Source of the DNA: Candidatus Sumerlaeia bacterium
GTDB lineage: Bacteria > Sumerlaeota > Sumerlaeia > SLMS01 > JANRJK01
DNA: 64,000 bases
Reading direction: 5' to 3'
NCBI GenBank assembly: GCA_033764015.1
Contig: JANRJK010000019.1
Coordinates: 4,872 to 68,871, forward strand
Below the pieces are notes generated by a model, which saw nothing but the letters and a program-made list of their open reading frames with translations, was not told where the DNA came from and did no database searches. Positions 2,693-58,339 of this stretch are shown piece after piece; the stretch's first letter is position 1, and the number at the start of each line of letters is the position of its first letter. The position numbers and the translations under genes are program-made.

Positions 2693-3928
2693 ATGTCCGA
2701 TAGCACCGCCACCCAACTGCCCCACTCGACCGCGCTCCCCGACGCGGCGGGGCGCTTCGGGGGCTTCGGCGGGCGCTACGTGCCCGAAACACTGATGCAG
2801 ACGCTGATCGAACTCGAGGCGGCGTACCGCTCCGTGGCCTTCGACGACGCGTTCCAAGCCGAACTGGCCCGCCTGCTCTCCGAGTTCGCCGGCCGCGAGA
2901 CGCCGCTCACCCGCGCGCGCCGCTACGAGCACGCCCTCGGCGGGCGCTTCCGCATCTACTTCAAGCGCGAGGACCTGCTCCACACCGGCGCCCACAAGCT
3001 GAACAACACCCTCGGCCAGGCGCTCCTCGCGCAGCGCCTCGGCAAGCGCCGCATCATCGCGGAAACCGGCGCCGGACAGCACGGCGTCGCCACCGCCACC
3101 GCCTGCGCGCTCCTCGGCCTCGAATGCACCGTCTTCATGGGCGAGGAGGACACCCGCCGCCAAGCGCTCAACGTCACCCGCATGCGCCTCATGGGCGCCA
3201 AGGTGCAGCCCGTCACCAGCGGCACCGGCACGCTGAAGGACGCCACCAACGAAGCGATGCGCGAGTGGATGTCCACCTGCGACGACACGCACTACATCAT
3301 CGGCTCCTGCGTGGGCCCGCACCCGTTCCCCATGATGGTGCGCGACTTCCAGAGCGTGATCGGCAAGGAGGCCAAGGAGCAGCTCGCGGAGCGCGAAGGC
3401 CGCCTGCCGGACCACGTCGTCGCCTGCGTCGGCGGCGGATCGAACGCCATGGGCATCTTCTTCCCGTTCTACGACGAGCCCTCCGTGCGCCTCTGGGGCG
3501 CGGAGGCCGCCGGCCACGGCGTCGCGAGCGGACTCCACGCCGCCTCCATCGCCGCCGGGCAGATCGGCGTCTTCCACGGCTCCCGCAGCTTCGTCCTCCA
3601 AACCCCCGACGGACAGATCACCCCGGCTCACTCGATCAGCGCCGGCCTCGACTACCCCGGCATCGGCCCCGAGCACGCCTTCTACGCCGATAGCGGCCGC
3701 GCCACCTACCTCCCCATCGACGACGACGAGGCGATCGCCTCGCTCCGCCGCGTGAGCGAACTCGAAGGCATCATCCCCGCCATCGAAACCGCCCACGCCA
3801 CCGCGCTGCTCGAAAAGCTCGCGCCCAGGATCGCCGACGACGCCGTGGTGCTCGTCTCCCTCTCCGGCCGCGGCGACAAGGATGTGGCCACGCTGAAGGC
3901 CCTGCTGGACGCGGAAGCGGAGAGCTAG
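2693..3928 (+). CDS. trpB: tryptophan synthase beta subunit
   Basis: MSDSTATQ...[16 protein letters not shown]...HTGAHKLNN...[10 protein letters not shown]...[11 protein letters not shown] are canonical TrpB/PLP-fold motifs. AAGGAG RBS lies 11 nt upstream of the ATG at 2693. The upstream in-frame Arg-rich extension to 2405 is judged non-coding. Confidence 0.95.
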
Positions 3929-4011
3929 TCGAGGGGGAGGCCCGCCCCGATTCCGGTTGCGAGAACGCCGTAAGCCGGGCTTCCCTCGCCGCCACGGAGG
4001 AAGCCGACGAC

Positions 4012-5280
4012 GTGTGCTTGACGAGATCGAGCAAGACGGGGAAAGCGCCGCCAACGGCCGAGGTCATCGGCGAAGAGTCGAGCGGGATGCAGACGCTTCG
4101 CGTGCCGCCCGGTGGCGGGGGCATCATCGAGTTGGATCGCATCTTTGGGCTAAAGGCGGTCGAAGCTTACGAGTACACCCCCTACGGCATTCCTACCGTT
4201 CACTACAAGGACGGGGCGATGGTTCGCACCGTCGTGTGGGACGACGACAAGGATACTGTCACCACCACTTCAAGCGTTACCAGTAATACACGTCGAGGCG
4301 AGTTTGCGGACGCGGCGTACCTGACGATGAGCGACTCTCCGTTCGGAGCGAGCTCATTTGACAAGGGGCGCGTGCGTAACTCCGCCGCGATGTCGCGGAT
4401 TGGTATCAAGCACCTCTACATGGCCCGGCCTTGGATTCCAGTTGGCGAAGTGTACCACATCCGCGCACGTTGGTACTCCCCGTTCGAGGGGCGGTTCATT
4501 ACTCTTGATCCGATTGGGTACGCAGGGGGTGCGAGTCAGTACATGTATTGCATGGGGGATTCTATTGACTTTATCGATCCGTTTGGCGAGGCCCCACTTG
4601 ACTGGGGCATTTGGTTGCAGGAGTGGTCTGAACCGCTGGAGGTGAAGGCTGCAAGATATGGTACGGGACCGATCAGCAATGTCATCGGGTTCGGTGGTTA
4701 CTACATGGCCAGTAGTGTAACTGCAGTTGGAGATATGCTGCAAGTCGGCACAGGACTGCACGCTGCTTGTAGCGGCTACGACATGAGTGGGCGGAAGCTT
4801 TCGACATTGGAGCGTTCTGAGCATCTATCCGGTGACATTTTCCGGGGTGTCGCCATCGGAGCTAGTGTGTATGGTGTCGGTAGAGGTTTCGACAGGATGG
4901 CATTTGGAAGTCGTAGGAATAGATTCTTGTACGATGGATGGGAAAAGAGTCGCGGCGAGATTTTGATCTTGGCTGAGAAGAACGGTGGACGAATGCTGGC
5001 GAATACTCCTGCCGGTCGCTTTGCTACAACTCTAGATAATGCAATGGGAAAGTCGGGGATGAGTAGCGAGCTAAGAGGGGGAGTATCGAATCGCATGTGG
5101 GATCATATGTCCCGCCACTATGCTCGGACTGCAAGGGGGAGGACATTCATCGCCCCGCTGGGAAAGAACCCTAACTCCGTGCTAAGGCGGGTTGAGATGC
5201 CTGAACTGATGAACAATAGTTGTGCTGATGTGCGTTACGTAGCGCGCGAGTACTTCGAGGCGCTTGGATGGCATCAATGA
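4012..5280 (+). CDS. orphan Rhs/YD-repeat C-terminal fragment: Rhs core end plus variable toxin domain
   Basis: YD-like repeats (YEYTPYGIPTVHYKDG) then the Rhs core signature RARWYSPFEGRFITLDPIGYAGGASQYMYCMGDSIDFIDPFGE (DPxG autoproteolysis motif at 4576-4590). A roughly 230-aa C-terminal domain of unknown family follows. GC falls from about 70% to about 50% downstream of the core. Confidence 0.75.
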   Translation: MCLTRSSKTGKAPPTAEVIGEESSGMQTLRVPPGGGGIIELDRIFGLKAVEAYEYTPYGIPTVHYKDGAMVRTVVWDDDKDTVTTTSSVTSNTRRGEFADAAYLTMSDSPFGASSFDKGRVRNSAAMSRIGIKHLYMARPWIPVGEVYHIRARWYSPFEGRFITLDPIGYAGGASQYMYCMGDSIDFIDPFGEAPLDWGIWLQEWSEPLEVKAARYGTGPISNVIGFGGYYMASSVTAVGDMLQVGTGLHAACSGYDMSGRKLSTLERSEHLSGDIFRGVAIGASVYGVGRGFDRMAFGSRRNRFLYDGWEKSRGEILILAEKNGGRMLANTPAGRFATTLDNAMGKSGMSSELRGGVSNRMWDHMSRHYARTARGRTFIAPLGKNPNSVLRRVEMPELMNNSCADVRYVAREYFEALGWHQ

Positions 5281-5302
5281 ATCGTCCCTTCGGAGGTGCA
5301 TC

Positions 5303-5701
5303 GTGAATCTGATGTCCGTTCTGAAGAGGGCTGTTTCCTTTCTGTGTGGTCGAAGTCAGACAGCATCGAGCGGTTCAAGAGGGCGCTTGAGAAGGATGGG
5401 TCCAGAGGGCGGTTACTTCGAGTTCTGGCACGAGGGAAGGATGCATTCTGTCGTCGCAGGGCTTCGCTACGACACAGACGTGGAGCAGGTTTTCTTGTAT
5501 CGGGATATCATCCTCACGGGGGCAGAGTGCCTAGACGTCGCGGAGTCGTCCGACGATTTGGTTGCGAGTCTCGAACAGAGCGCGAAGGAGTACTTTAAAC
5601 AAAGCGACGTGCGGCTTGTCGAGCACTCTGAAAGAAACCGCAATGTTCAACTTCGGGCAATGGAAGAGTTGAAGGCACTTCGTGCTCGAAAGGGTAGATG
5701 A
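5303..5701 (+). CDS. putative cognate immunity protein for the Rhs C-terminal toxin
   Basis: Low-GC ORF immediately downstream of, and overlapping, the toxin 3' end, in the frame of track ORF 5264..5701. GGAGG lies 6 nt upstream of GTG 5303 (alternative ATG at 5312). Its composition is balanced, whereas the alternative frame 5296..5598 is Arg-rich. No family recognised; the start is uncertain. Confidence 0.45.
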   Translation: MNLMSVLKRAVSFLCGRSQTASSGSRGRLRRMGPEGGYFEFWHEGRMHSVVAGLRYDTDVEQVFLYRDIILTGAECLDVAESSDDLVASLEQSAKEYFKQSDVRLVEHSERNRNVQLRAMEELKALRARKGR

Positions 5702-6057
5702 GTGATTTAGGGATGAACTGTCTGGTCACGATGCGAGACCAGCTACCTAATCCCTCACCCCATTGATGCTGACCTGCACTTGATTGCTTGACGTTGTTTG
5801 GGCGCGTTTGCGCCAGCGGCCCGTATGTCCACCCGCTAGCCCTACCGCTACCACATGCTTGTCGATCTTGAGCGCTTCGCGCGGGTCCGCCGCGAGGCGA
5901 TCCTCGAGGTCGACCGGGGGCGCGACGAAGGCCGATGTCGCGCGCCAAGTCGGCGTCGGCCGGCTGACGGAAGTCGACTACCTCCAGTTCGCGATCCCCA
6001 AGAAGCCTGTGGCCAAGGATCACCGTCCGTCGACTGCTCCAGTGGGGCATTTTCTCA

Positions 6058-6342
6058 ATACTCCACCCTCCAAGTCGGCGACTCCTCCACCCTGCTCCGC
6101 CTCCGGTCGTAGAGTCTGGTCGTGCTGACGTTTGCGTGCCCGAGCCATTCCTGCACCTTCGCGATGTCGGCTTGGTGCTCCAGGGCGTTGGTCGCGGCGG
6201 TTGCGCGGAGCGAGTGGACGCAGAGGCCGCGGATGTCGATGCCGGCACGGCGGGTGGGGTGCTGGACGATGTCGCGGAGGACGGATTCGGGGTGAGAAGA
6301 GAAGCTCTCACGCGAGGCCGCGAGGACGCGAAGTGTTGCGCT
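6058..6342 (-). pseudogene. tyrosine recombinase/phage integrase C-terminal remnant (no start codon, N-terminus missing)
   Basis: Reverse-complement frame reads ...HPESVLRDIVQHPTRRAGIDIRGLCVHSLRATAATNALEHQADIAKVQEWLGHANVSTTRLYDRRRSRVEESPTWRVEY*. HxLR and LGHxxxxTTxxY(catalytic Tyr) are integrase box II motifs. The frame opens directly after an in-frame stop, so this is a 95-aa fragment only. Confidence 0.6.
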
Positions 6343-6388
6343 TCAGGAACGCGGCAGGCCGCATGGACGCCCGCGACACTCTGCCGCG

Positions 6389-7300
6389 TTACCTGAAGAA
6401 GGCGTCCGCGCGCGAGTCGTCCGCCAGCTCGCGGACGCGGTCGCGGTCGAGGCCCGGCGAGAGGTCGCAGGCGAGGGCGATTTCGCGCTCCATGTCGAGC
6501 GCGGCGTTGCTCGCCAGCGAGTCGGTCCCGAGGTAGCAGCGCACGCCGCCCTCGAGCAGCCGCGCCAGCGGGAACGGGCCGCGCGCGAAGTAGGCGTGCG
6601 TGCCCGGGCAGACGACGGCGCTCGCGCCCGATTCGCGCATCAGGCGGATGTCCTCGTCGTCGATGTCGTTGCAGTGGGCGAGGAGCGTGCGCGGCCCGAG
6701 GGCGCCGCATTCCGCAAGCCACGGGACCGGGCGCAGGCCGGGGTGTTCCCAACCCGCGCGCAGGTGGAACTCGAGGAGGAAGTCCGCCAGCGGCCCGCGC
6801 CGGCGCAGCAGCAGTTCCGTCTCCTCCACGGTTTCCGCGGCGTGGATGCAGAGCCACTGGCCGCGGGCGCGCGCTTCGCGCACCGCCGCGCGCAGCAGCG
6901 GCGCCGTGATCGTGTACGGCGCGTGGGGCGAGAGGCCGTGGCGCGCGAGCGCGTCCTTGGCGCGGGAGAGCGCCTGCCGGTCCAGCGCGCCGCGCAGCGT
7001 CTCCTCGCCGGTGCGCGGGTTGGTGTCGATCACCTCGCGGAACAGCACGCGCCGCAGGGTGGTTGACTCAGTCAACGGTTCGTCCGCGGTGTCCATGGCG
7101 AGGATGTCGGCCACGGCGGTGGTGCCGTTCGCGGCGAGCTCCGCGAGGCCCGCGCGGGCGCTCGCGGCGCTGGCGAGCGCGGACCCGGCGCGCTTCAGCG
7201 GCAGCAGCCGCTCGAGCCACTCGGCGAAGGGGAGCCCCGGCGGGATCGCGCCCTTGAGGAACCCGAGTTCGAGGTGGCAGTGCGAGTTGAACGTGCCCAC
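6389..7300 (-). CDS. amidohydrolase-family metal-dependent hydrolase (lacks the usual N-terminal composite domain)
   Basis: The HCHLELG (HxH) metal-binding motif sits at residues 7-9 and later HxxE/D motifs are typical of the amidohydrolase superfamily. GTG start at 7300 lies 2 codons after the U32 stop and in the same frame. Confidence 0.65.
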   Translation of the reverse strand: MGTFNSHCHLELGFLKGAIPPGLPFAEWLERLLPLKRAGSALASAASARAGLAELAANGTTAVADILAMDTADEPLTESTTLRRVLFREVIDTNPRTGEETLRGALDRQALSRAKDALARHGLSPHAPYTITAPLLRAAVREARARGQWLCIHAAETVEETELLLRRRGPLADFLLEFHLRAGWEHPGLRPVPWLAECGALGPRTLLAHCNDIDDEDIRLMRESGASAVVCPGTHAYFARGPFPLARLLEGGVRCYLGTDSLASNAALDMEREIALACDLSPGLDRDRVRELADDSRADAFFR

Positions 7301-7303
7301 CGG

Positions 7304-9856
7304 CTACTCGCGGTCCAGGCTGCCGCGCGTGACGCCGAGCTTGCTGTTCGCGCGGAGATGCCGCCAGATCTCTCGCCCGTCCACTTCGCCGCGCACCGCG
7401 GGCGCGTAGAGCGCGACGGCCCGCCGCACCGCCTCCGCGTCCTCGCGCAGGAAGTCGATGCGCCAGCGCGAAACGCCCGCCGCGAGCAACTGCGGCAAGT
7501 ACGCCGAAGCGCTCTGCGCCACCGCGTTGAACACCGTGTTGCGGCACCCTGCGTCGGCCTTCACGTAGTGCTCGTAGCCGACGCGGTCGCGCAGCGCCAG
7601 CTCGTGCGACTCGCAGGGGCGTCCGCAGTTCGTGAAGTCCGTGCCGTCCGACAGGTACCGGCAGAACACGCAGTGCTCCATGTGGAACATCGGGATGTAC
7701 TGGTGGAGCGTGACCTCGAACCACGCCGGGGGCGCCGCGCGAAGCAGGTCGAGGAGTTGCTCGATGTTGAGGTCGTAGCTCGGGACGAGCTGCGTGAAGG
7801 CGCGCCCGCGCAGCAGCGCGGCGGTGAGCTCGTTCGCGACGTTCAGCGAGTAGTCGCCGAGCAGTTCCAGGCCGGGCGCCTCGGCGCGGAGCACCTGCCA
7901 GGCGGCGAGGTTGCGCACCAGCACGGCGTCAGGCGCGGCCTCGATGAGCTTGCGGACGAAGCCGGACTCGCCGGGCTTCATCACGCGGAGCGTCGCCGGC
8001 ACGAAGCGCGGCCCCACCGCCGGCACCAGCGCGCGCGCCTCGCGGTGGAGCCGGATGTCCTCGAAGTCCGTGTACACCGTGTGCACCGCGCCCGATTCGA
8101 CCGCGGCGCGCACTTGCGCGAGCGTGCGGCACAGGACCGACAGGCGCGGCTCCGCGTCGGGCTCGGCGTGGGGCACCTCCGCGCGCAACCGCGCCAGCGC
8201 GCCGGGATCGGCGGAGCGCCGCGTGCCGCGCTCGCGGCGAAGATCCACCAGCGCGGCGACCGCGCGGCGGCGAAGCTCGTTGAGTCGGCTCACCGGGACA
8301 TAGAGCGCGCCCTCGAGTTCCGCCTCGAGTCCTCGCAGCTCGAACGGCGTGTTGCCCAAGCGGCCGAGCTGCTCGCAGAGCGTGGCCTCGTCCAGCGCGT
8401 GCTTCGCCGCGGTTGCGGCGGGCTCCGCATCGAGCACCTCGGCGCGGAGGCCGTCCTCGTCGGTGATCTCCAGCGCGAGCGGCGCGCCCGCCGCGCCGCG
8501 CACCACCATCTCCACCGGACGGCGGAAGCGGATCCGGTCGCCGGCCCAGGTGGCGTCGAGCTCCGCGTCCAGCGCGGGGTCGCTCGTCTTCCACACGCGG
8601 TCGCCGACGTTCACCTTCGCGAGGTCAACGGCGCCGGAGCCGAACTCGAGCAGCGCTTCAACGAACGGTTCCGCGTCGAGGAGCGGATCGAAGATCTTCA
8701 TGAGCTGCCCGTCGCGGAACATCGTGTACACGCGGCCGCCCTGCTCGTCGCCATCCGGGCGCCCCGCGTCGAACACCACGCCGTCGCCGCACTTGAGCGG
8801 CCCCTGGAGCCGCACGGCGACGCGGCGCTGCGCGACGGCGGTGACGGTGCCGAGGAAGAGCCCGCGCTTCTTCGGGAAGCGGCCCTCGACCACCGCCTGG
8901 TGGTTGATCTCGTGCAGATAGCCGCCGGTGAAGCCACGGCTAAAGGTCATCTCGAGCGCGCGCCGGTTCGCCTCGTCCAGCGCGGGGTCGGCGATCTCGT
9001 CCGCGGCGAACGCGCGGTCCACCGCGTCGCGGTAGGCGCGCACCGTGGCGGCGACGTAGGCGGGCGACTTGAGCCGGCCCTCGATCTTGAGACTCACGAT
9101 GCCGAGCCGCACCAGGTCGCCGATGTCCTCGAAGCCGGAGAGGTCCTTCGGCGAGAGGACGTAGCGCAGGTCGCCGACATCGAGGTGCTTGCCGTCCACC
9201 ATCAGGTCGTAGGGAAGGCGGCACGCCTGCGCGCACTCGCCGCGGTTCGCGCTGCGCCCGCCGAGCGCCTCGCTCGTGAGGCACTGGCCGCTGTACGCCA
9301 CGCAAATCGCGCCGTGGACGAACACCTCGAGCTCCGCCTCCGTGCCGCGGCGCACGGTGCCCAGTTCCTTGCGCGATAGCTCGCGCGCCAGCACCACGCG
9401 CGAGAGGCGCAGCCCGAGCGCTTCGACGCCCGCGACGGACTCCGCCGAGGTGAGCGACATTTGCGTCGAGGCGTGCACCGGCATCTCCGGCGCGAGTGCG
9501 TTCGCCAGCCGCGCCACGCCGAGGTCCTGCACCAGCACCGCGTCGATCCCCGCGGCGTTCACGGCGAGCAGCACGCGCGCCGCCTCCTCCAGTTCCGACG
9601 GAAAGACGAGGGTGTTGAGCGTGAGGTAGCCGCGCACGCCGCGCTCGTGGAGCCAGGCGAGCGTCTCGGGCAATTCGTCCAGCGCGAAGTTCGCCGCGCG
9701 GAGGCGCGCATTGAACTCCTGCACGCCGAAGTAGACCGCGTCCGCGCCGTTCTCGACGGCGGCTCGCATCATATCGCGCGTCCCGGCAGGCGCCAAGATC
9801 TCCGGGCGCGATGCGAGGGCTTTCGGAAGCGGTGCGGGCTTGAAGGCGGCGGGCAT
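7304..9856 (-). CDS. peptidase U32 family protein, double-U32 type with two Cys clusters (RlhA/UbiU-UbiV-like)
   Basis: True start MPAAFKPAPLPKALASRPEILAPAGTRDMMRAAVENGADAVYFG is the U32 N-terminal signature. A first Cys cluster (CVAYSGQCLTSEALGGRSANRGECAQACRLPY) and a second (CVFCRYLSDGTDFTNCGRPCES) are present. The Arg/Pro-rich extension to 10357 is rejected. Confidence 0.85.
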   Translation of the reverse strand: MPAAFKPAPLPKALASRPEILAPAGTRDMMRAAVENGADAVYFGVQEFNARLRAANFALDELPETLAWLHERGVRGYLTLNTLVFPSELEEAARVLLAVNAAGIDAVLVQDLGVARLANALAPEMPVHASTQMSLTSAESVAGVEALGLRLSRVVLARELSRKELGTVRRGTEAELEVFVHGAICVAYSGQCLTSEALGGRSANRGECAQACRLPYDLMVDGKHLDVGDLRYVLSPKDLSGFEDIGDLVRLGIVSLKIEGRLKSPAYVAATVRAYRDAVDRAFAADEIADPALDEANRRALEMTFSRGFTGGYLHEINHQAVVEGRFPKKRGLFLGTVTAVAQRRVAVRLQGPLKCGDGVVFDAGRPDGDEQGGRVYTMFRDGQLMKIFDPLLDAEPFVEALLEFGSGAVDLAKVNVGDRVWKTSDPALDAELDATWAGDRIRFRRPVEMVVRGAAGAPLALEITDEDGLRAEVLDAEPAATAAKHALDEATLCEQLGRLGNTPFELRGLEAELEGALYVPVSRLNELRRRAVAALVDLRRERGTRRSADPGALARLRAEVPHAEPDAEPRLSVLCRTLAQVRAAVESGAVHTVYTDFEDIRLHREARALVPAVGPRFVPATLRVMKPGESGFVRKLIEAAPDAVLVRNLAAWQVLRAEAPGLELLGDYSLNVANELTAALLRGRAFTQLVPSYDLNIEQLLDLLRAAPPAWFEVTLHQYIPMFHMEHCVFCRYLSDGTDFTNCGRPCESHELALRDRVGYEHYVKADAGCRNTVFNAVAQSASAYLPQLLAAGVSRWRIDFLREDAEAVRRAVALYAPAVRGEVDGREIWRHLRANSKLGVTRGSLDRE

Positions 9857-9969
9857 GGCGTGGCGGCTCCTTGGCCGCCGCGAGGCGACTCCACCAGCGG
9901 CGCGCCGGGCCCACAAGCCCGATTGCTCCGCGGCCTCCCGCGGCGCACAACAAGTGCTTCGCGATCCGC

Positions 9970-11208
9970 ATGGAGGCGCCCGTGGAATCCGCCGCACTGC
10001 CCAAGCTGCTGTCCGCCGTGCTCGCGACGCATCGCGAGCTGGCCCGGCTGCTGGTCGCCGGCGCCCCGCCGCGGCGCTCCGCCCCCGGTGGGCCGATGCC
10101 GCTCCTGCTCTTCTCGCAGGTGCCGTGGGACAGCGTCTGGCAGCGTCCGCAGGAGCTCGCGCTCGGCCTATCGCGGCGCCGTCCGGTCGTGTTCTTCGGC
10201 CCGGTGCAATGGCACGAGGCCGCGCTGCGCGTCGGCGCCGCCCGCGAACCGGTCCGCCGCCTCGAGGACGGCCGCCTGCTCGTCCTCTCCCCGGTCGAGT
10301 TCTCCGGCACCTACAAGGTCGGTGCGGTGGCGGCGCTGAACAACCTCCTTCGCGCACGGCTGCTCAGCCGCGTCCTGCCGGGGCGCGACTTCATCTACCT
10401 CACCAACTCGCTGTTCGACTGGGAGCTGGCGCGCGCGCTGCGCCCGCGCCACCTCGCGCTGGACCTGATCGACGACTTCGCCGGGTTCGCCTGGGCGCCG
10501 CGCGGCGCCCGCCGCAGCGAGCGTCTCCTCGCGCGCCGCGCCGACCTCGTCGTCGCCGGCACCGGCACGCTGGCGCGGCGCTGGCGCCAGCGCGGCTTCG
10601 ACGTGGACTATCTGCCCAGCGGCGTCCACGCGGAGCGTTTCGCCGGTTCCTTCACCGAACCGGGGGACCTGCGCGCCGCGCCGCGCCCGCGGCTGCTCTA
10701 CGTGGGCACGCTCAACGACCGGCTCGACGCGTCGCTCCTGCTCCGCGCGGCGGAGGCGAACCGCTCCGGCAGCGTCGTCGCCGTCGGGCCCCGCCACGGC
10801 TCCTTCGCCCTTCCGGGGCCGGCGCCAAAGAACTTGCTCTTCCTCGGCTTGAAGCCACACTCCGACCTGCCCGCCTACTACGCCCATTGCGATGCGGGGA
10901 TCATGCCCTTCGCCGACACCCCCGCCGCCCGCGCCATCAATCCTGTGAAGGCCCTCGAGTACCTCGCCGCCGGGCTTCCGGTCCTTTCGACACCGATCCC
11001 CGACGTGGTAGCCGAGTACCCCCCGCACGCGACCATCGCGGCGGCGCCGGATTGGCCCGCGGCGCTCGCCGAACTGCTCGCCCGTCGCGAGCCGGAGACG
11101 GTCCGCGAAGCGCGCCGCGCCTTCGCCCGCGGGCGCTCCTGGGGCGCCATGGTCGACGCCTTCGAGGAGCGCATCGGCCGCCTCGAAGCCGCGGAGGCCC
11201 GCGCGTGA
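9970..11208 (+). CDS. glycosyltransferase family 1 (GT4-like)
   Basis: C-terminal GT1 motifs LLYVGTLNDRLD...LLFLGLKPHSDLPAYYAHCDAGIMPF...INPVKALEYLAAGLPVLST. Start chosen at MEAPVESAALPKLL; MPLLLFSQVPW at 10096 is an alternative. Confidence 0.8.
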   Translation: MEAPVESAALPKLLSAVLATHRELARLLVAGAPPRRSAPGGPMPLLLFSQVPWDSVWQRPQELALGLSRRRPVVFFGPVQWHEAALRVGAAREPVRRLEDGRLLVLSPVEFSGTYKVGAVAALNNLLRARLLSRVLPGRDFIYLTNSLFDWELARALRPRHLALDLIDDFAGFAWAPRGARRSERLLARRADLVVAGTGTLARRWRQRGFDVDYLPSGVHAERFAGSFTEPGDLRAAPRPRLLYVGTLNDRLDASLLLRAAEANRSGSVVAVGPRHGSFALPGPAPKNLLFLGLKPHSDLPAYYAHCDAGIMPFADTPAARAINPVKALEYLAAGLPVLSTPIPDVVAEYPPHATIAAAPDWPAALAELLARREPETVREARRAFARGRSWGAMVDAFEERIGRLEAAEARA

Positions 11209-12902
11209 GCAGCCGACTCAAGTTCCTCTTCGCGCTCTACCGCTGGGGGGAGGATCTGCTCGGCGGCGCCGAGCTGCTCCACCGCCGCCTCGCCTTCGAA
11301 CTCCTCGAACTCGGCCACGAGGTCGAGGTTTGGACCACCACCGGCCACAAGTTCGAGCACTTCGCCCACTGGGGCGAGCGCTGGACCGAATTCCACGCCG
11401 CGGGCGACACGCTCGACAACGGCATCAAGGTGCGCCGCTTCCCGATGCGCCCGCAGTCGAAGCTCCTCATGGGGATCTTCGCCAAGGCGCTCCAGTTCGA
11501 ATGGGAGCGCCACGCCGTCGAGGTCGATCCGCGCCGCCTTTTCCTGACGCCGGAGCGCATCCTCCTCGGCCCCGACTGGCACGAGGCGGAATCCGCCGGC
11601 GAGGGTCTCGCGCGCCGGTGGAGCTGGGCGCGCTCGAGCGTGTTCCTCGCCCCGGGCGGGCGGGAATCGCTCCTCACCATCAACGGTTACACCCCGCGCC
11701 CGCAGCAGCTCCAGCTCCGCTGCGCCGGCCCCGACACCCGAGAGGTGGTGAAGCGCCAGGCGGTCGACCAGCACTTCAGCATCCAAGTCACCGTGCCGGC
11801 GACACGGGAGGCCGTGGTGCTGCAGCTCCGCGCGGAAGGCGCCTTCCGCCCTCCCAAGGACTTCCGCGAACTCGGCGTCCTCGTCTCCGACATCTTTCTC
11901 GACACCGGCGAGGCGTCCTACGGCGCGAACATGTGGATCGACGCGCGACCTCTCGCCCGCGACTCCGCCCTGGTCGCGCGCGCGGCGAAGCGCCCGCCCG
12001 CCTCGGGAATGCTCTTCGACTACCTGCGCGGGCCGAACAGTCCCGCGCTCCAGCGCGCCCTCGCGCGCGAGTCGCGCAACCGCGACGTCATCTTCACCGC
12101 GAACCTCCCGTGGCGCCTCTTCGACCCGCCGAAGGTCACCCGCGGCGGCGCCATCCGAACCATCATGCCGCTGATGCACCTCGGCGACTCGTACTACTAC
12201 TGGAGCCACTACTTCGACGCGATGCGCGGGGCGGACTTGAACCTCGCGATCAACCAGGCGAGCGGCGAGACGCTCTTCAAGGAGATCGGCGCCAAGTCCG
12301 CCTTCATCGGCCCGCCCATCTGGCCCGACGAACGGCTCACCCGCCTCGAGACGAAGCGCGCCAACTCGAAGAACATGCCGGTCGTCGTCTTCACCCTCTC
12401 GCGCAAGACGGGCGAGAAGCGATACATGGAGATCGCCGCCTCCGTCGGAAGGCTACGCGCCGCCGGTCTGCCGCTGGTGATGATCGGCGCCGGCCCCGAC
12501 GCGGACGGCGCCCCCCTCCCGGAGGGTTGCCGCTGGCTCGGGCGCCTCTCGGAGGACGAGCTGGTCGAGGCATGGGCCAACGCACATATCTTCGTCCTCA
12601 TGAGCGAGTCCGAGTCCTTCGGGATGGTCATCGTCGAGGCGTGGCACGCCGGGCTCCCGGTCGTGGTCAACCGACGCTGCCGCGCCGCCGCCTCGCTGGT
12701 GGAGCACGATGTGGACGGCTACGTGGTGAGCCCCGGCGGCGAGCTGGACTCGGCGCTCGAGTTGCTGGCGGAGGACGCCGGCCTGCGCGCGCGGCTGGCC
12801 GCCGCGGGCCGCCGCCGCGCCCGCCAGGAATTCGTCCGCGGCGCCGCCGGCAAGCGCTTCGTCCAAGCGGTCGAGCCCCTCGTCCGCGAACGCCGCAAGT
12901 GA
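11204..12902 (+). CDS. glycosyltransferase family 1, large N-terminal domain
   Basis: GTG start overlaps the upstream stop (GTGA). C-terminal GT1 motifs VVVFTLSRKTGEKRYMEI...FVLMSESESFGMVIVEAWHAGLPVVV... Confidence 0.75.
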
Positions 12903-34778: not shown

Positions 34779-37700
34779 ATGGAAGACGATCCGACCCCCG
34801 ACGCGCGCGAGCTGGCGAACACCGTTCCGCTGCATGTCCCCAGCGACTTGCCGGCGAGACCGTCGCTATCGTACAACCGCCGCTTCCCGAACGCCCAGGA
34901 CTCTTCGGATTCGGAGGAGGGCGACGACGATGGCTCGCCGGAAACGCTCGCCCAGCAAGCGCCCGGCAGCCGCTCGGGATCCATCGGCAAGGCGATCCGC
35001 GACGGCGCGATCACTCACGACGCCGACGCGCTCGGCTTCCATTTCGAACGACTGATCGGCCGGGGCGGCATGGGCGAAGTTTGGGAGGCCGTCCAGGCAC
35101 GCCTCGGGCGCATCGTCGCCGTCAAGCGCCTGCGCCCGCGCGGACGCGACTCCGACGATCATCACAGCACCGCCGCCCTGCACTCCTTCGAAGGCGAGGC
35201 GCTGACCGCCGCCCTCCTGGACCACCCGAACATCGTGCCGGTCTACGACCTCGGCTTCGATTCCGCCGGCCGCCCCCTCATGGCGATGAAGCTGGTCCGC
35301 GGCACCAACTGGCAAAAAGTCATCGAGCGCGACTTCAAGGCCCTCGAACCGGAGGACTACCTCGCCAAGCACCTGCCCATCTTCATGCAGGTGGTCCAGG
35401 CGGTCCTCTTCGCGCACTCCCGCGGCGTCGTCCACCGCGACCTGAAGCCCACCCAGGTCATGATCGGAGAGTACGGCGAAGTGCTCCTCATGGACTGGGG
35501 CCTCGCCATGATGATCGGCGATCCGCCGAGCCACATCGACCGCTCCACGTACCACGCCCGCTACCCGACGGCGGCGACCGCGGACAACCCTTCCGGGACA
35601 CCGGGCTACATGGCGCCCGAGCAGACCGAGATGTTCACCACGCGCATCGGCCCGTGGACGGACATCTACCTCCTCGGCGGGACGCTCTACCGGCTCCTCA
35701 CCGGAAAGCTCCCGCATCCCGGACGCACCAGCCAGGAAGTCTACCTCCACGCCGCCCACGGAGTGGTCCAGCCGTTCGCGGAGGCGGCGCCGGGACGCCA
35801 CGTGCCGGCGGACCTCGAACGCGTCGCGATGTGGGCCATGCTGCCCAATCCGGCGGAACGCCCCACGGGACGCGAGTTCGCCGACGCGCTGCAGGAGTTC
35901 ATGACCGGCTCCTCGAACCGCCGGGAATCCGAGCGCATCACCGACGAGATGGCGCTCGAAGCGCCGGACGACAACTACGCGGCCTACGTCGCGGGCCTGG
36001 CGAAGCTCGCCAACGCGATCCGCCTCTGGCCCGGCAACCACGACGTTGCGCCGCTGCGCGAGCGCCACCTGCTCGGCTACGCGAAGCTGGCGCTCCGCGA
36101 GGGCGACCTCTCCCTCGCCCGCGCGCAGGCGGAGCGGCTCGACGACGGCGAGGCCAAGCTCCGGCTGCTGAAGCAGATCGACGACGCGGCGCGCGCGGCC
36201 GCGCTCCAGAAGCGCCGCAACCAGCAGCTCGGGCTCGCCGCCGCCGCCATGCTCCTCGTCATCCTCGGCGGCGGCGCGGTCTTCACCCTCAGGCTCTCCG
36301 AGGCCAATCATGCCACCCGGGTGCAACTCGTCCTCACCAGCGAAGCCCGTATCGCGGAGGCGGACGCCCGCCGCGCGGCGCAGTTCGAGCTCCGCCGCGC
36401 CACGCTCCTCCTCGCCGAGTCGCTGATCGCCGAGGACCGCCTCGACGACGCCGTGAACGAGCTGCGCCGCATCCCCCTCGAAGAGCGCGGCCTCGAGTGG
36501 CGCTATCTGCTCACCAAGGCGCTCAAGGACCTTTGGTACAGCCCCTACGAGTACATGCACTTCTCGCCCTCCCGCAGGTTCGTGCTGGGGAACTTGGAGG
36601 GGGAGGGCCTCGCCGCGCTCCTCGCGGAGCCCGGAACCGTGCTGGCGCCCCTGGTCGATGCCCTGCCGGACGGGTTGGTCGTCGCTTGGTCGCGCGACGA
36701 GTCGCTGTTGGCCCTCGACGCCCCGACGCTTCCGCTGACGGTTTGGGAAACGGATAGCTGGCGGGTGCTCCGCAGCGAGGACCCCTCGACCACCGACACG
36801 GTGCGCGCGATCGACTTCTCCCCGGACGGACGCCAGCTCGCACTGGGCTACGAAAGCGGGCTCGTGACCGTGATGCCGCTCGCGGATGGATCCGAGCGGG
36901 CGCTCGCCCGCCATTCGACTCCGATCATCGGGGTTTTCTGGGGGGAGACCAAGTTGATGACGGCATCCCCCGACGAGCTTCGCCGGGTAGATCCGAAGAG
37001 TGGTGCACATACATTGGTCTACCGCACCGGAGCGGCCAGTGTTCCCTTCCGTCCTTTTAAGATTAGTGCGAACCGGCAGCGCACCCACGTCGCCTTCGGA
37101 CATGTGTTTGAAAAGGTTGCCTCAGTGGGAATCGAGGCAGGCGTTCCCATTACCTACTCGCACCCAGCAATACAGTGGTCCTTTAGCGGTCTCCAACAGC
37201 ACTTGATCCTTCCAGGGTTTGGATTCGAACCGCAAGTGGCGGTCTACGACCTCGAGACCGGACAAGATGTGTCGCGAAGGGCGCAGCCGAAGGTGCAAGC
37301 TATCGATCAAAATAGTAGTTTGCATGTGGCGAACGATGTTCACTACGTGGACTTGTCCGCCGCGGAGGACGTCGCTCTGGTGCTCGAAAGGCGGCATGAT
37401 TATGCATTGCGGAACTACCCCTCATTCTCCGCCCTCTTGAACGGCAAGTCCGTTTACTCTGGCAGGGAAATGGACCGTGTCACACTCCATCCATCAGGGC
37501 GGGCCCTTTGGGTGGCGCGCCCCGGCGGCCCCACCCGGACAGTCCCGGCTTCCTCGGCGTGGGCGGGACTTCCCATCCCCGGCAGCTACCCGAGCTTCGG
37601 GACCAACGACGCCTATATCGCTGCGTTGCAGCACGAATCTCACGACCACTTCGACCCCTCCACTGGTGAGAGAATTTTCGACTCGGGAGGCAAATTCAAC

Positions 37701-39584
37701 ATCTACCGGGGTTCCGACATGTCTGAGGATCGGAAGCGCTTCCTTCTTCCCGGGGTGCGGAGCGAAAAATACACCGTCCGTGTGTTCGACTACGAGAAGA
37801 AAGTATTGTTGAAAGAGCATGTCTTCGACTTCGGCTTCCGACGCGCCTTCTTCTCCGCCGAGAAGTCCACCATTGGGTTCCTCGCCCCCGATGGGACAAA
37901 TGCTGAAATCTATTCATTGTCGGGCGATTCGCCAGTACTCCTCATCGAAATGAAGGCGGAGGCAGAAGACATTTTCACGTTCGGATCGAGCTCGCCGGAT
38001 GGTGCGACATACTATCTGGGTACCATGTCCGGGCGGCTATGTGTGGTCGATGCTGCGAAAGGCACCGTTCTCCGCGAGTTCGAGCCGACCCCCAACCCGA
38101 TCCTACTCATTTCACAACGCCTCGACGGTCACTTGGTGGTGATTGACAACTCGAACATCGTGACGTTGGTTTCCGCAATCGACGGCACCATGGTGAACCG
38201 GGTACCCTTCAGCTTCGAGCCGCAGGGGCTGGCGGTTTCGCGGGCGGGCGACTTGGTCGCCTCTTGGAGCGAGTCGGGGCAGATCGAGGTGCGCAGACTC
38301 GGGGATGGCACGGTCGTCTCCCAGTCCAAGCGGACGGACTTCCCGCTCTTCGCGCTCCGCTTCGTCGGCGGCGACTCGCGGCTCATGGCATACGGAGACG
38401 GCGAGGCCCGCCTGTTCGATCCCGCTACCGGCGAAGACATCTTCACGATCCGGGATGGCTTCGGATCGCTCAGCGCGAGCGAGGACATGTACCTCGCGGA
38501 GGTCGAGGCCGGCAGGATCAGCGCACTGGTGTCGCTGGCCCCGAAGGAAGCCTTCGCGGAAGTCGGCGCCGCGGGTTCCGACTCGGCGGATGCGGCCCTC
38601 CACCGCTGGCGGCTCGACCGATACAGGACATGGCACCAGTACGCGATCCGGCACCGCGTCCACCCGGGCTGGAGCGCGGGGGCGGCGGTCTTGGAGCCCG
38701 GGGCGGTTCCCGCCTTGCGCGATTTCAGCTACCTATTCTCGATCGGCGAAGTCCCCGCCAACGATACGGCACTTCGGTTCCCCCGGACACGGCTCGAGCT
38801 CTTCGCCGCGTTCACGCTCGCCGCCGACCTGTTCCGATCTCCAATTGAGGACGGCTTTACGGAGTTCCCGGTCCTGAACGCGACCGCCCAGGCGGCGCCG
38901 GAGCTGTTCAACGGCCCCGTGGGATCCGCGGCGATCCTCATCGGCTCGGCCTACAGCCGGCGCTTGGAGGAGTCGCCCAGGATCGACTCGGAAGTGTGGG
39001 CCTTCGCTAGCCTGCTCCGCCACCAGCTCGACGCCGCGCGCGCACTCGCGGAACGCGGCGACCGCGAGGCGGCCTCCGCCGTGCTGCTGCGCGCCGCCGC
39101 GCATGTCCGGCTCGCAGACACACCCACGGGAGATTGGGAGTACGAACTCCGGCGCCTTGGCCTCGAACTTCCGGTACCTCCGCCGGCGGAGCTGGTGCGC
39201 GGGCCGAACATGGGAAGCCCGCCCTTCGTGCTGGAGCGCATGGCCATGCTCGATCCGATGGCGCCGCTGGAGGTGCGCGCCGCGGTCGCGAAGCAGGCCG
39301 CCGACGAGTACGCCGAGCGCGCGCGCGAGTACCTCGACCGCGTCGCCCCCCTTGTGGACTGGGACGCCCTGGTCGCCCGCCACGCGCCGTTCCCAGAGGA
39401 CTCACCCGTCCGCGAGGGCGTCCCCTTCGGACCCTACATCGCCGAGCGCCTCCCCGACCTTGAGCGGGGCGTGCTCGGCGGGCTCACGCTCGACGAGGCG
39501 CTGGAAGCGGAGCGCCGCCGCATCGAGGAGTTGTTCGCACCTCCCGCCATCCCGGACAGCGGCAGCCGGGTAGTCGCTCCCTAG
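34779..39584 (+). CDS. Ser/Thr protein kinase with a large C-terminal beta-propeller/repeat region
   Basis: LIGRGGMGEVWEA (Gly loop), AVKRL (Lys), HRDLKPTQVM (catalytic loop), DWGLA (DFG-like), GTPGYMAPE (activation loop). Followed by a coiled coil, a TM segment and WD40-like repeats. Confidence 0.85.
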   Translation: MEDDPTPDARELANTVPLHVPSDLPARPSLSYNRRFPNAQDSSDSEEGDDDGSPETLAQQAPGSRSGSIGKAIRDGAITHDADALGFHFERLIGRGGMGEVWEAVQARLGRIVAVKRLRPRGRDSDDHHSTAALHSFEGEALTAALLDHPNIVPVYDLGFDSAGRPLMAMKLVRGTNWQKVIERDFKALEPEDYLAKHLPIFMQVVQAVLFAHSRGVVHRDLKPTQVMIGEYGEVLLMDWGLAMMIGDPPSHIDRSTYHARYPTAATADNPSGTPGYMAPEQTEMFTTRIGPWTDIYLLGGTLYRLLTGKLPHPGRTSQEVYLHAAHGVVQPFAEAAPGRHVPADLERVAMWAMLPNPAERPTGREFADALQEFMTGSSNRRESERITDEMALEAPDDNYAAYVAGLAKLANAIRLWPGNHDVAPLRERHLLGYAKLALREGDLSLARAQAERLDDGEAKLRLLKQIDDAARAAALQKRRNQQLGLAAAAMLLVILGGGAVFTLRLSEANHATRVQLVLTSEARIAEADARRAAQFELRRATLLLAESLIAEDRLDDAVNELRRIPLEERGLEWRYLLTKALKDLWYSPYEYMHFSPSRRFVLGNLEGEGLAALLAEPGTVLAPLVDALPDGLVVAWSRDESLLALDAPTLPLTVWETDSWRVLRSEDPSTTDTVRAIDFSPDGRQLALGYESGLVTVMPLADGSERALARHSTPIIGVFWGETKLMTASPDELRRVDPKSGAHTLVYRTGAASVPFRPFKISANRQRTHVAFGHVFEKVASVGIEAGVPITYSHPAIQWSFSGLQQHLILPGFGFEPQVAVYDLETGQDVSRRAQPKVQAIDQNSSLHVANDVHYVDLSAAEDVALVLERRHDYALRNYPSFSALLNGKSVYSGREMDRVTLHPSGRALWVARPGGPTRTVPASSAWAGLPIPGSYPSFGTNDAYIAALQHESHDHFDPSTGERIFDSGGKFNIYRGSDMSEDRKRFLLPGVRSEKYTVRVFDYEKKVLLKEHVFDFGFRRAFFSAEKSTIGFLAPDGTNAEIYSLSGDSPVLLIEMKAEAEDIFTFGSSSPDGATYYLGTMSGRLCVVDAAKGTVLREFEPTPNPILLISQRLDGHLVVIDNSNIVTLVSAIDGTMVNRVPFSFEPQGLAVSRAGDLVASWSESGQIEVRRLGDGTVVSQSKRTDFPLFALRFVGGDSRLMAYGDGEARLFDPATGEDIFTIRDGFGSLSASEDMYLAEVEAGRISALVSLAPKEAFAEVGAAGSDSADAALHRWRLDRYRTWHQYAIRHRVHPGWSAGAAVLEPGAVPALRDFSYLFSIGEVPANDTALRFPRTRLELFAAFTLAADLFRSPIEDGFTEFPVLNATAQAAPELFNGPVGSAAILIGSAYSRRLEESPRIDSEVWAFASLLRHQLDAARALAERGDREAASAVLLRAAAHVRLADTPTGDWEYELRRLGLELPVPPPAELVRGPNMGSPPFVLERMAMLDPMAPLEVRAAVAKQAADEYAERAREYLDRVAPLVDWDALVARHAPFPEDSPVREGVPFGPYIAERLPDLERGVLGGLTLDEALEAERRRIEELFAPPAIPDSGSRVVAP

Positions 39585-51623: not shown

Positions 51624-52001
<378 letters not shown>

Positions 52002-52090
52002 CCTCAGACCCCAGACTTCATACGCTCCGAAAGGTTTCCACGGTGCCCAAGCGCAAGAAAAAGGACCAGCGGTCACGCAGCCAACGCAAG

Positions 52091-52564
52091 ATGTCGCGCC
52101 GCCGCATACCCCCCGGCCGCGGCCTAGTACCCGATCTCCGCTACGGCAGCACGCTCGTCAGCAAATTCATCAACGCCATCATGGTCGACGGCAAGAAGTC
52201 CGTCGCCCAGTCGATCTTCTACGGCGCCATGGACATCATCAAGGCCAAGATGCCCGAGCAGGAGCCCGTCGAGGTCTTCAACAAGGCGATCGACAACATC
52301 AAGCCGATCGTCGAAGTGAAGAGCCGCCGCGTCGGTGGCGCCAACTACCAGGTCCCCATCGAAGTCAAGACGCACCGCCAGCAGGCCCTCGCCTTCCGCT
52401 GGCTCGTCAACTACACCCGCGCACGCGGCGAACGCGGCACCGCCGCCAAGCTCGCGAACGAGGTCATGGACGCCTTCAACGGCACCGGTGGCGCCTTCAA
52501 GAAGAAGGAAGACACCCACCGCATGGCCGAAGCCAACAAGGCCTTCGCCCACTACCGCTGGTAA
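52091..52564 (+). CDS. rpsG: 30S ribosomal protein S7
   Basis: [37 protein letters not shown]...[19 protein letters not shown] at 52043 with a Lys-rich extension is an alternative start. Confidence 0.9.
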
Positions 52565-52675: not shown

Positions 52676-53698
52676 CTACCGACCGGGTGCGAAGTCCAAG
52701 GTCGCCTCGTTGAAGACGAGCCGCCTTCCGGTCTTCGAGTTCGGATCCTCGAAAATCGGGATCGGCGCCGCCCCCGAATCTCCCGACCGGTAGAACAAGG
52801 AACGCTCCGCCAATCCCGCCGGCGAGACAATGTCCCGAGCAGGATCAACAGGGCGAACCTCCTCCAGCGTATACGTACTCCGGCTCTTCGCGACCGCCTC
52901 GTACTCCCCCAACAGGGCGCGCAGCTCCGCGGCGGATGTTGCGCTCCGGAGGTCGGTGCGGATCCCGTAAGAAGTCTCCGTCACCTGATGACCGGGCTCG
53001 TTCGGACGGCCTCCGGATGTTTGCATCGAAATCGACGGGAGAAAGGTCACCTCGGAGCCGCTGCCCCAAACCACGGCGGTCCCTGCCGCACTCCTCGTGA
53101 CGCTTCCATTGGAAGCGTCGATGAAGTCGAAGAAACCGCTGTAGGTGGTGAAGCCCTCTTGCGTTGCGACTGGTTCCTTCCCCGACACCCAGAGCACGCC
53201 CGGCTCGGGGGCCGATATCAGGTACGGACGCGAGGACCTCGAAACCTCTTCCACCATCAACGCCCGGCTGGACACGGAATCCGGGCCAACGATCATGTCT
53301 CCGACTACACTGAAGGGGGGAACGAACGTGGCAACGCTTGAGGCACTCGGGAACGCCGTGTAGGCTCCCCCCATCCATTCCACGGTCAGGACGCCATCCC
53401 AGAACATCAAGAACTGTGGCGAGGCCGCAAGCGTCGGGTCGGTCGTCTCCATATGCTGGAACACGACTGATCGATCCGTAGCAATCGCCTTGAAGTCAAA
53501 AGACTTGGACTCCGACGGCGCCTTCCCGCCGCCTGCCTGTTCGGAGCGAAGCGAGTAACGGAACACGGTACCGGACTCCAACGGCGCGATGGCCGAGTAC
53601 AGCTCTAGCGCTTCGCTCGGGGTTGATTCGACGACCTTCATGTTGATCGGCGCCTCGACCGATGCGCCGAGGCTGAGAACTAGGAATGCGAGGACCAT
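52676..53698 (-). CDS. secreted hypothetical protein (lower-GC gene)
   Basis: Signal peptide MVLAFLVLSLGASVEA. 340 aa, GC about 58%. No family recognised. Confidence 0.5.
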   Translation of the reverse strand: MVLAFLVLSLGASVEAPINMKVVESTPSEALELYSAIAPLESGTVFRYSLRSEQAGGGKAPSESKSFDFKAIATDRSVVFQHMETTDPTLAASPQFLMFWDGVLTVEWMGGAYTAFPSASSVATFVPPFSVVGDMIVGPDSVSSRALMVEEVSRSSRPYLISAPEPGVLWVSGKEPVATQEGFTTYSGFFDFIDASNGSVTRSAAGTAVVWGSGSEVTFLPSISMQTSGGRPNEPGHQVTETSYGIRTDLRSATSAAELRALLGEYEAVAKSRSTYTLEEVRPVDPARDIVSPAGLAERSLFYRSGDSGAAPIPIFEDPNSKTGRRLVFNEATLDFAPGR

Positions 53699-53716
53699 CT
53701 GGTGTCTCCTTTCGGG

Positions 53717-54160: not shown

Positions 54161-54332
54161 CTCTATCTCCCTAAAGGGTGGAAATCTCACTCGATCAAGT
54201 CGAGATAGGGGGTCGCTACCCCCCCCCTCATCCGTCAACAGAAAACTTCAAGCGGTCAAGGCGCGATACCTTGCGCCGATTCCGGCGCGGCGCGCCTCCG
54301 CCCCGCCGGCGATCCCGGCTAAATCCCACCGC

Positions 54333-58133: not shown

Positions 58134-58339
58134 TACCGCCGAGCCGAGCGGTAACCGCCCGGCAAGCGCGGCAGTGAGCCCCACCCCCACGCCCCCGCGC
58201 AAGCCTTTTTTGCGCAACCACGACACCGGCGCGCGCCGTTCTCCACCCGCAAGGAAACTATCCGGCGTCCAACGAATGTTTGGCTAGCCAATAATCCGCT
58301 TGCAACCCCAGCCGCCGCAGCCCCTAGAGTCCCCACATC

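Follow-up and report, generated by a model that had tools for sequence, protein, structure and literature searches.

What a patch of GC-poor DNA directly behind trpB consists of, and how it came to lie there, is the question raised by a 64-kb stretch from a metagenome-assembled genome (MAG) of Candidatus Sumerlaeia bacterium. This stretch, referred to below as the window, was attributed to the MAG on the NCBI names of the proteins that it encodes, and the patch lies inside a contig of 105,939 bp. An initial annotation had described a 2.4-kb islet that took the place of trpA and carried an orphan Rhs toxin module with a candidate immunity gene, displaced from a full-length rhs and delivered by an integrase of which a remnant was left. 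The five features that it described were all recovered, at its coordinates or close to them. The results favour, with moderate confidence, a solitary and horizontally acquired orphan-type Rhs toxin/immunity cassette, in which a non-deliverable toxin tip predicted to consume NAD(P)+ would be kept together with its inhibitor, both as an immunity gene and as a spare warhead.

A shell-less Rhs fragment lies behind trpB

An open reading frame (ORF) of 422 codons was found on the forward strand at 4012–5280 when read from a GTG start; NCBI places the start at ATG 4087, which gives a protein of 397 amino acids (P0001, MDX2176099.1). Since the frame stays open over 422 codons in DNA of about 55% GC and has homologues, it is not a chance ORF. 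It scored 47.3 bits with the Rhs_assc_core model TIGR03696, for which the cutoff is 32.5, over residues 146–192 only, which correspond to profile positions 29–75 of 76. No Pfam model for YD-repeats, RHS_repeat or the shell matched the ORF at E<=0.1, and YD-like sequence was limited to a single YEYTPYG motif. In fact, the terminal 45 or so residues of the core alone could be aligned to solved Rhs/TcC shells, in each case at the extreme C-terminal end of the shell (8h8a residues 1108–1151 of 1152, YenC2 644–695 and 7q97 1250–1289). Roughly 176 residues precede the DPxG junction, with trpB directly upstream and no terminator found between the two genes. Domain scans revealed neither an N-terminal trafficking domain (PAAR, VgrG-binding) nor a signal peptide in the ORF, the N-terminal 25 residues of which are hydrophilic. 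Both aspartates of the two DPxG motifs were invariant in six homologues, and the second motif is a DPFGE variant in which glutamate follows DPFG where leucine is usual.

Judged by these matches, the ORF is a shell-less C-terminal fragment of an Rhs protein with a variable toxin domain. The initial annotation had proposed as much, namely a fragment that lacks the N-terminal shell and consists of the core end followed by a variable C-terminal domain, and the match to the Rhs core model bears this out. Of the few YD-like repeats that had also been described, one motif was recovered while the YD-repeat models gave no match.

The search for homologues covered 5.8 billion proteins, a collection that includes the annotated proteins of this MAG. 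Nine matches were obtained, all of 543 amino acids or less: P0001 itself, P0002 (420 amino acids), P0003 (536 amino acids) and six weaker ones. Between VIGEESSG (nt 4063) and DPFGE (nt 4590) the ORF and P0002 share 85% identity (149 of 176 residues), and beyond DPFGE identity is about 25%. The tip carried on the matching core is lipase-like in P0002 and of the Colicin_D type in P0003. Rhs polymorphic toxins are defined by a conserved core up to DPxG with unrelated tips after it (PMC3150448), and the fall from 85% identity before the junction to about 25% after it thus assigns the ORF to this type of toxin. P0002 (MDX2177236.1) lies 1137 accession numbers from the window protein, the adjoining candidate immunity gene of which bears the locus tag SF028_06480, and on account of this proximity P0002 is most probably encoded by the same MAG, on a different contig. 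The two ORFs agree in length and in their 5' homology boundary, as would be expected of discrete cassettes more than of a resident rhs gene truncated at random.

No rhs gene of full length whose core matched closely was found in the window or among the 5.8 billion proteins. The proposal that the fragment had been displaced from a resident full-length rhs, which would also have been its recombination donor, consequently found no support, as the window is without a full-length Rhs and the longest database match to the core has 543 amino acids.

The surroundings of the core homologues were compared with the window. At the P0003 locus (L001) an upstream rhs end with the same core and an immunity gene is followed by the orphan P0003 and a Colicin_immun gene, and the tips and immunity genes have a GC of 0.42–0.5 against 0.65, a pattern as in the window. 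Three short Rhs C-terminal (CT)/immunity modules stand in a row at the P0012 locus (L086). At the P0004 locus (L090) an rhs gene for 1125 amino acids and its immunity gene come first, and rve_3 and Y1 transposase genes separate them from the orphan P0004 with an immunity gene. Two short Rhs-core toxin/immunity cassettes (4269–5971 and 6445–9011) were found at the P0008 locus (L092, GCA_018402565.1), where they are flanked by near-identical tyrosine recombinase genes at 2957–3882 (frameshifted) and 11110–12036. The window module is one of a population of orphan-type cassettes, which are often found in the company of mobile-element genes. As a separate observation, the arrangement in L092 may constitute a recombinase-bounded toxin-cassette unit.

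The C-terminal tip resembles ADP-ribosyl cyclases

The 228 residues following DPFGE were searched with phmmer against 1.84 billion representative proteins, which gave three matches other than the query. Two of them are genuine relatives of the last 130 or so residues: P0012, an Rhs C-terminus with 38% identity, and P0013 with 32%. The third, P0011, was considered as a relative of the linker and rejected, being a repetitive protein of unrelated composition as judged from its sequence alone.

A profile built from the three toxin domains (A1, comprising the query, P0012 and P0013) was searched against all PDB sequences. It matched 9ro8, an 'ADP-ribosylcyclase toxin' (E=8.5e-4), the CD38-like protein 5bnf (E=0.019), 9ouf, a homologous toxin deposited as 'Ribonuclease' (E=0.054), and three Aplysia ADP-ribosyl cyclase sequences (1lbe, 3zwo and 3zwm, E=1.9–2.0). 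A single fold is common to six of the seven matches listed. Conservation is concentrated in two blocks. The first has the pattern W-x3-S-x2-[YF]-A-x2-A-x-G, while the second places the putative catalytic glutamate in a vE(L/M)PxL motif, which reads RRVEMPEL here and VELPRL in 9ro8. This residue, Glu395, does not vary within A1, and the glutamates of VELPRL (9ro8) and RVEVHSL (5bnf) are aligned to it, at a position that corresponds to CD38 E226, Tac1 E573 and ARCtox E356. The equivalent of CD38 W189 is present as Trp363, so that two of the four canonical residues of ADP-ribosyl cyclase (ARC) domains, W189 and E226, are kept. Alignment of A1 to human CD38 with hhalign gave E=0.0027 over W189–E226, a value that serves as a lead only.

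ARC domains are NAD(P)+-depleting toxins on PAAR, VgrG, Rhs, LXG and CdiA scaffolds, and adjacent immunity proteins neutralise them by plugging the active-site cleft (PMC12356396, PMC12605009). The profile matches indicate that the last 130 or so residues of the ORF quite probably form a divergent NADase domain of the ARC type with the CD38 fold, and NADase activity is predicted for it on that basis. Relatives were scarce elsewhere: a metagenome scan with A1 returned only the P0012 locus again, a viral scan returned nothing and a plasmid search gave no relatives of either the toxin or the immunity ORF. In P0013 (L087, 3690–5165) the related domain stands at the N-terminus of a 491-residue protein with a long Lys/Ser-rich tail; no toxin scaffold and no obvious immunity gene were seen there, and P0013 may be an ARC enzyme that is not a toxin.

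A candidate immunity gene adjoins the toxin

The ORF downstream of the toxin extends at most over 5264–5701, from a TTG at 5264, and in that form overlaps the toxin stop. A likelier start, and the annotated one, is the GTG six nucleotides after a GGAGG, which gives a protein of 132 amino acids (P0010, MDX2176100.1; Table 1). From this start the ORF begins 22 nt past the toxin stop and the two genes do not overlap. The small downstream ORF of the initial annotation hence keeps its immunity position and loses the overlap ascribed to it. The position is the same as that of the immunity genes in L001, L086, L090 and L092. No signal peptide was found in the protein, it had no match in Pfam or NCBIfam (E<=10) or in PADLOC, and its AlphaFold2 model, with a predicted local distance difference test (pLDDT) value of 44, was of no use. 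A promoter-like site just upstream of the ORF, a match to the sigma-70 consensus only, is one of two such sites in 3 kb where 0.6 are expected. Position, intact frame and ribosome-binding site make it likely that the ORF is an immunity gene, and immunity function is predicted for its product.

The patch is a mosaic of foreign and host-like DNA

Mean GC of the 64 kb is 0.693 with a standard deviation of 0.046 (500-nt windows), and the minimum of 0.524 falls inside the patch. The zone of low GC (0.52–0.58) spans only about 4100–5850, or about 1.75 kb. The fall in GC noted initially is thus real and the deepest in the window, but the extent of 3929–6388 given to it was too wide. Measured by segment, GC is 0.72 in the spacer at 3929–4011, 0.58 in the Rhs-core part, 0.55 in the linker, 0.52 in the toxin domain, 0.54 in the second ORF, 0.67 in the integrase fragment and 0.74 at 6343–6388. 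GC at third codon positions (GC3) declines gradually from 0.85 to 0.6 along the Rhs-core fragment and is about 0.5 in the toxin domain and the second ORF. The integrase fragment, with a GC3 of 0.85–0.95, is host-like. Because the segments differ in this manner, the patch is a mosaic and not a single homogeneous block of 2.4 kb. Its toxin and immunity part, at 0.52–0.54 against 0.69–0.75 in the flanks, is compositionally foreign.

Traces of integration were sought around the patch. There was no convincing pair of flanking direct repeats of the attachment (att) type and no transfer RNA (tRNA) target next to it, the only tRNA of the window being at 58059–58134. No Rfam family reached its gathering score, the sole sub-threshold match being a chance one to Ref68 (24 bits against a gathering score of 44). 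Across the 64 kb no gene of a type VI secretion system (T6SS) and no PAAR, VgrG or full-length Rhs gene was found. An empty site was not obtained from a close relative, the nearest TrpB being 79% identical and trpB synteny not being conserved.

trpB is solitary in the Sumerlaeota loci examined

That no trpA follows trpB was confirmed, since three TrpA sequences searched against the window with tblastn gave no match. The accompanying proposal, that trpA normally follows here and was replaced by the islet, was contradicted by the relatives. A scan of a genome collection with TrpB returned 80 loci, one of them from Sumerlaeota (L002). With the same three TrpA sequences, trpA was detected by tblastn in 50 of the 79 loci from outside Sumerlaeota, mostly directly downstream of trpB. 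It was absent from all five Sumerlaeota trpB loci (L002, L082, L083, L084 and L085) over the whole contig or 10 kb to either side. The TrpB proteins of these five loci are 73–79% identical to that of the window, and the gene 3' of trpB encodes an AAA_14/DUF4143 ATPase in L002, an alpha/beta hydrolase in L082 and L083 and small hypothetical proteins in L084 and L085. Since none of the five has an adjacent trpA, a solitary trpB is a trait of the lineage and the islet did not displace trpA. With trpB lacking trpA as the normal state in the lineage, the islet did not disrupt tryptophan synthesis.

Several features of these trpB loci were noted in passing. In the window the trpB frame is open for 96 codons further upstream (2405–2692, ATG at 2405) with an Arg/Pro-rich translation; NCBI starts the gene at 2693 and the extension is probably an artefact of high GC. 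In L002 about eight copies of a TTTCAATCAGCCGAAC-like motif follow closely on one another in the spacer between trpB and the ATPase gene (2560–2720). L084 (11210–12420) and L085 (3726–3796) encode an identical TrpB protein and differ in the 3' flank of the gene, which in L084 is longer by about 0.9 kb and holds two small genes, one of them a weak match to DUF6082. The 3' flank of trpB is thus variable in another Sumerlaeota species too. L084 also encodes a class I aminoacyl-tRNA synthetase of 1094 amino acids (6567–9851) with a precomputed Pfam match to Y1_Tnp, an IS200-type transposase, between the synthetase domains.

A recombinase remnant and the right flank

On the reverse strand a frame bounded by TGA at both ends is open over 6058–6342. 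Its translation matched PF00589 with 44.9 bits at profile positions 109–167 of 172, and homology covers 6294–6058 only, that is residues 242–322 of a recombinase of 322 amino acids. Identity to WP_064023788.1, a tyrosine recombinase on a Methylomonas plasmid, is 69% and both proteins share the same end (...VEY); the family is also common on Pseudomonas plasmids. The catalytic HxxR and tyrosine are kept in HSLRAT and TTRLY, while the N-terminal core-binding domain and the first catalytic arginine are missing. No other piece of the recombinase was found in the window, and 6295–6388 has no recognisable origin, though the frame is open to 6342. The C-terminal tyrosine integrase fragment on the opposite strand, as initially annotated, was therefore confirmed by the PF00589 match and by homology over 81 amino acids. 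Since a quarter of the protein remains and there is no start codon, the recombinase cannot be active, and by homology the fragment is a dead remnant of a mobile element. That this integrase delivered the module was not borne out, adjacency being the one point in its favour, against a host-like codon GC and the lack of direct repeats and of a tRNA target. From adjacency and by analogy with L092, a link between the stub and the arrival of the cassette is plausible.

To the right of the fragment lies an amidohydrolase gene that starts three nucleotides past the stop of a U32 peptidase/DUF3656 gene (7304–10363, reverse strand). The best PDB match of its product was 2imr_A (DR_0824), and, measured against its homologues, it lacks about 95 residues at the N-terminus and about 40 at the C-terminus, which together make up the whole beta-sandwich domain. 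The gene may be doubly truncated or, more likely, a naturally short, barrel-only form. Truncation by the islet was rejected as the less probable explanation, since GC3 is native up to the stop and the start lies three nucleotides after the U32 peptidase gene. Coordinates are collected in Table 1.

Table 1. Features of the trpB–amidohydrolase interval and its flanks, in window coordinates.
Feature	Position	Strand	Remarks
trpB	2693–3928	+	left flank, housekeeping, outside the cassette; TIGR00263, 596.5 bits; GC 0.71, GC3 0.85–1.0; MDX2176098.1
Spacer of host-like GC (0.72 and 0.65)	3929–4062	+	GGAGG at 3996–4000, 11 nt before a possible GTG at 4012
Rhs core end, about 176 aa, VIGEESSG to DPFGE	4063–4590	+	contains the RARWYSPFEGRFITLDPIGYAGG...DPFGE autoproteolysis/plug region; TIGR03696
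Gly-rich hydrophobic segment, presumed linker or pre-toxin part, about 95 residues	4591–4881	+	weakly common to P0003, P0004 and P0012; no Pfam match at E<=10
Predicted C-terminal toxin domain, about 132 aa and stop	4882–5280	+	divergent, ADP-ribosyl cyclase-like; putative catalytic Glu395, codon 5194–5196
Sigma-70-like promoter match within the end of the toxin gene	5192–5220	+	9 of 12 consensus positions
Candidate immunity gene, 132 aa	5303–5701	+	GTG start; GGAGG at 5292–5296; P0010
Non-coding stretch, 356 nt	5702–6057		GC rises from 0.53 to 0.65; no convincing ORF, no Rfam family
Tyrosine recombinase remnant, last 81 aa	6058–6294	-	carries HSLRAT and LGHANVSTTRLY; N-terminal ~240 aa missing
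Amidohydrolase	6389–7300	-	right flank, outside the cassette; PF01979, 87 bits; GC3 0.95–1.0 up to the stop

Two further dips in composition were observed in the window. A patch of lower GC (about 0.58–0.60) at 52676–54238 lies between ribosomal protein S12 and S7 genes (51624–52564, forward strand) and an L7/L12 gene (54434–54811, reverse strand), all three recognised from their translations only. The patch holds two reverse-strand ORFs without a Pfam match, of 340 amino acids and of 173 Cys-rich amino acids, and stands where translation-factor genes might be expected. A dip to 0.55–0.59 at 36900–37900 lies within an ORF of 1629 codons for a Ser/Thr protein kinase with WD40-like repeats.

Proposed role of the cassette and alternative explanations

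If the segment is an acquired orphan-type cassette, as we think somewhat probable, analogy with Tac1 and the ARC toxin of Pantoea suggests that the toxin domain would be lethal to a cell through consumption of its NAD+ and NADP+, and the product of ORF 5303–5701 would be a cytoplasmic immunity protein that blocks the active-site cleft of the toxin. The Rhs protein would not be deliverable alone, since the YD-repeat shell, a PAAR/VgrG-type trafficking domain and a signal peptide are all absent from its sequence. Two roles might account for persistence of such a cassette, the first being immunity against the same toxin from neighbours and the second a spare toxin tip that could be recombined onto a full-length rhs via the conserved core. 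The integrase stub would be debris of an Xer-like recombinase from a plasmid or integrative and conjugative element (ICE) beside the cassette.

A number of observations weigh against this account. Pfam and NCBIfam assigned no family to the toxin domain, and the Pfam ADP-ribosyl-cyclase model was among those without a match. Searches of the PDB with single toxin sequences matched no ARC structure, and for the two-lobed ARC fold, with its four-stranded sheet and helical cap, the AlphaFold2 model of the domain was of no use, at a mean pLDDT of 46 and with Foldseek matches that amounted to noise. CD38 W125 appears as Tyr307 in an alignment made by eye from the FYSG block and reported by no tool. 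The position of the second active-site glutamate (CD38 E146, Tac1 E516, ARCtox E299) aligns to Ala330 in MLANTPAGR, within a weakly aligned block, and is occupied by serine and aspartate in the two relatives. Loss of this second glutamate abolished toxicity of the Pantoea toxin (PMC12605009). The ARC assignment, drawn from a profile of three sequences, is thin. The candidate immunity protein matched only itself among the 5.8 billion proteins and showed no similarity to the Imm74/Tci1 family or to the gene that follows P0012. The proposed reservoir has no evident recombination partner, as the searches brought up no full-length rhs with such a core, and the acquisition is not datable, since relatives yielded no empty site.

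The pair may instead be an expressed, self-contained intracellular module, that is a type II toxin–antitoxin (TA) or addiction system or possibly an abortive-infection system that depletes NAD+ or makes cyclic ADP-ribose. We regard this as possible and on the whole unlikely. Salmonella rhs-CT/rhsI orphans have internal promoters and behave as type II TA pairs (PMC7043789). The window pair has two intact ORFs, each with GGAGG upstream, no terminator between trpB and the toxin ORF and a promoter-like site before the immunity gene, and yet no PADLOC defence model matched it. P0002, of the same length and 5' boundary and without a full-length partner, would be a second such ORF in what is probably the same MAG, an attribution that comes from nearby accession numbers only; core homologues, for their part, stand in classical orphan arrays behind full-length rhs genes in L001 and L090. 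Once its second glutamate is removed, Tac1 sets free cyclic ADP-ribose, and in Nac1, a natural cyclase, that position is occupied by alanine (PMC12356396). The alanine found here at the CD38 E146 position would resemble this cyclase type, although the equivalence comes from a weak alignment.

Less probable still is that the segment is inert debris without present function, either the decaying remnant of an old mobile element or that of a once full-length rhs locus. The integrase cut to a quarter of its length, the lack of att repeats, of a delivery domain and of a partner rhs, the glutamate after DPFG instead of the usual leucine and an immunity ORF without relatives would all be expected of debris. 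However, frames of 422 and 132 codons have remained unbroken in DNA of about 53% GC, where stops readily arise, the putative catalytic glutamate and both DPxG aspartates are conserved, and the composition is far from ameliorated, which argues for a recent arrival.

A bolder proposal, which we consider quite improbable, is a stand-alone enzyme module built on a shell-less Rhs core. The aspartyl protease of the core would free the CD38-like domain inside the producer, where it would make cyclic ADP-ribose under control of an inhibitor of a new kind, and the module would serve in addiction, abortive infection or signalling. The cyclic product is suggested because alanine replaces the second active-site glutamate, as in Nac1. 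Cassettes with the fixed 5' boundary VIG[EQ]ESSG, as in two loci of probably the same genome, might be moved as units by tyrosine recombinases, a possibility hinted at by the two cassettes between recombinase genes in L092. It is very improbable that the patch is an artefact of assembly or binning, in the form of a chimeric join within the contig, as the metagenomic source, the abrupt shift in composition and the want of a close relative to confirm the junctions are set against the internal position of the patch in its contig of 105,939 bp, high-GC genes typical of the lineage to its left and right, a GC3 that falls along the Rhs frame gradually and without a jump, a paralogous core of 85% identity in a Sumerlaeia MAG and low-GC toxin/immunity parts on cores of host GC as the norm in L001.

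Comparison with known systems

The orphan-type Rhs cassette favoured here is in itself of an ordinary, known kind and does not overturn current understanding. What is new is that its toxin is probably a divergent NADase of the CD38 fold. NADase toxins with this fold, which have been known since 2025, would be extended to the little-studied candidate phylum Sumerlaeota by a very divergent domain on an Rhs core, adjoining an immunity candidate without relatives. The locus is also a clean case of an orphan toxin cassette detached from a full-length rhs, and it bears on how such cassettes spread and persist, whether as a reserve, for immunity only or as a selfish TA pair.

The recombinase remnant is like the Xer-like recombinases of plasmids and ICEs, with the 69% identity to WP_064023788.1 over the C-terminal 81 residues, and unlike them in being a quarter of the protein without a start. 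In the orphan rhs-CT/rhsI modules of Dickeya, Yersinia and Salmonella a core fragment up to DPxG(L), a variable toxic CT and a small immunity ORF are likewise found without a delivery part (PMC3150448, PMC3967940). In these classical cases a full-length rhs, usually next to a T6SS, stands immediately upstream of the orphan and has the core in common with it for recombination (PMC3150448, PMC3967940). The window module, on the other hand, is solitary between trpB and an amidohydrolase gene. Neither another rhs gene nor a T6SS gene occurs in the 64 kb, the database contains no full-length core that matches, and the P1 residue is glutamate and not leucine. The module resembles the Salmonella Typhimurium rhs orphan in being a shell-less Rhs-CT/immunity pair that might be expressed within the producer, with a promoter-like site inside the toxin gene. 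The Salmonella orphan adjoins its main rhs, and the toxin that it encodes belongs to another type, as yet unknown (PMC7043789).

For the tip, the nearest comparison is with Tac1 of Streptococcus parasanguinis (PMC12356396) and ARCtox of Pantoea ananatis (PANA_2924, PMC12605009, PDB 9ro8); Rhs-fused ARC domains have already been reported (PMC12356396, PMC12605009). Unlike these toxins, the window domain has two relatives among the 1.84 billion representatives, appears to carry tyrosine for the first tryptophan and alanine for the second glutamate, and is followed by a gene that falls outside Imm74/Tci1 and every known immunity family. It is like them in layout, a C-terminal domain of about 130–150 residues on a polymorphic-toxin carrier with an immunity gene next to it, and in the profile match, the catalytic glutamate motif and the W-x3-S-x2-[YF]-A helix that have been kept.

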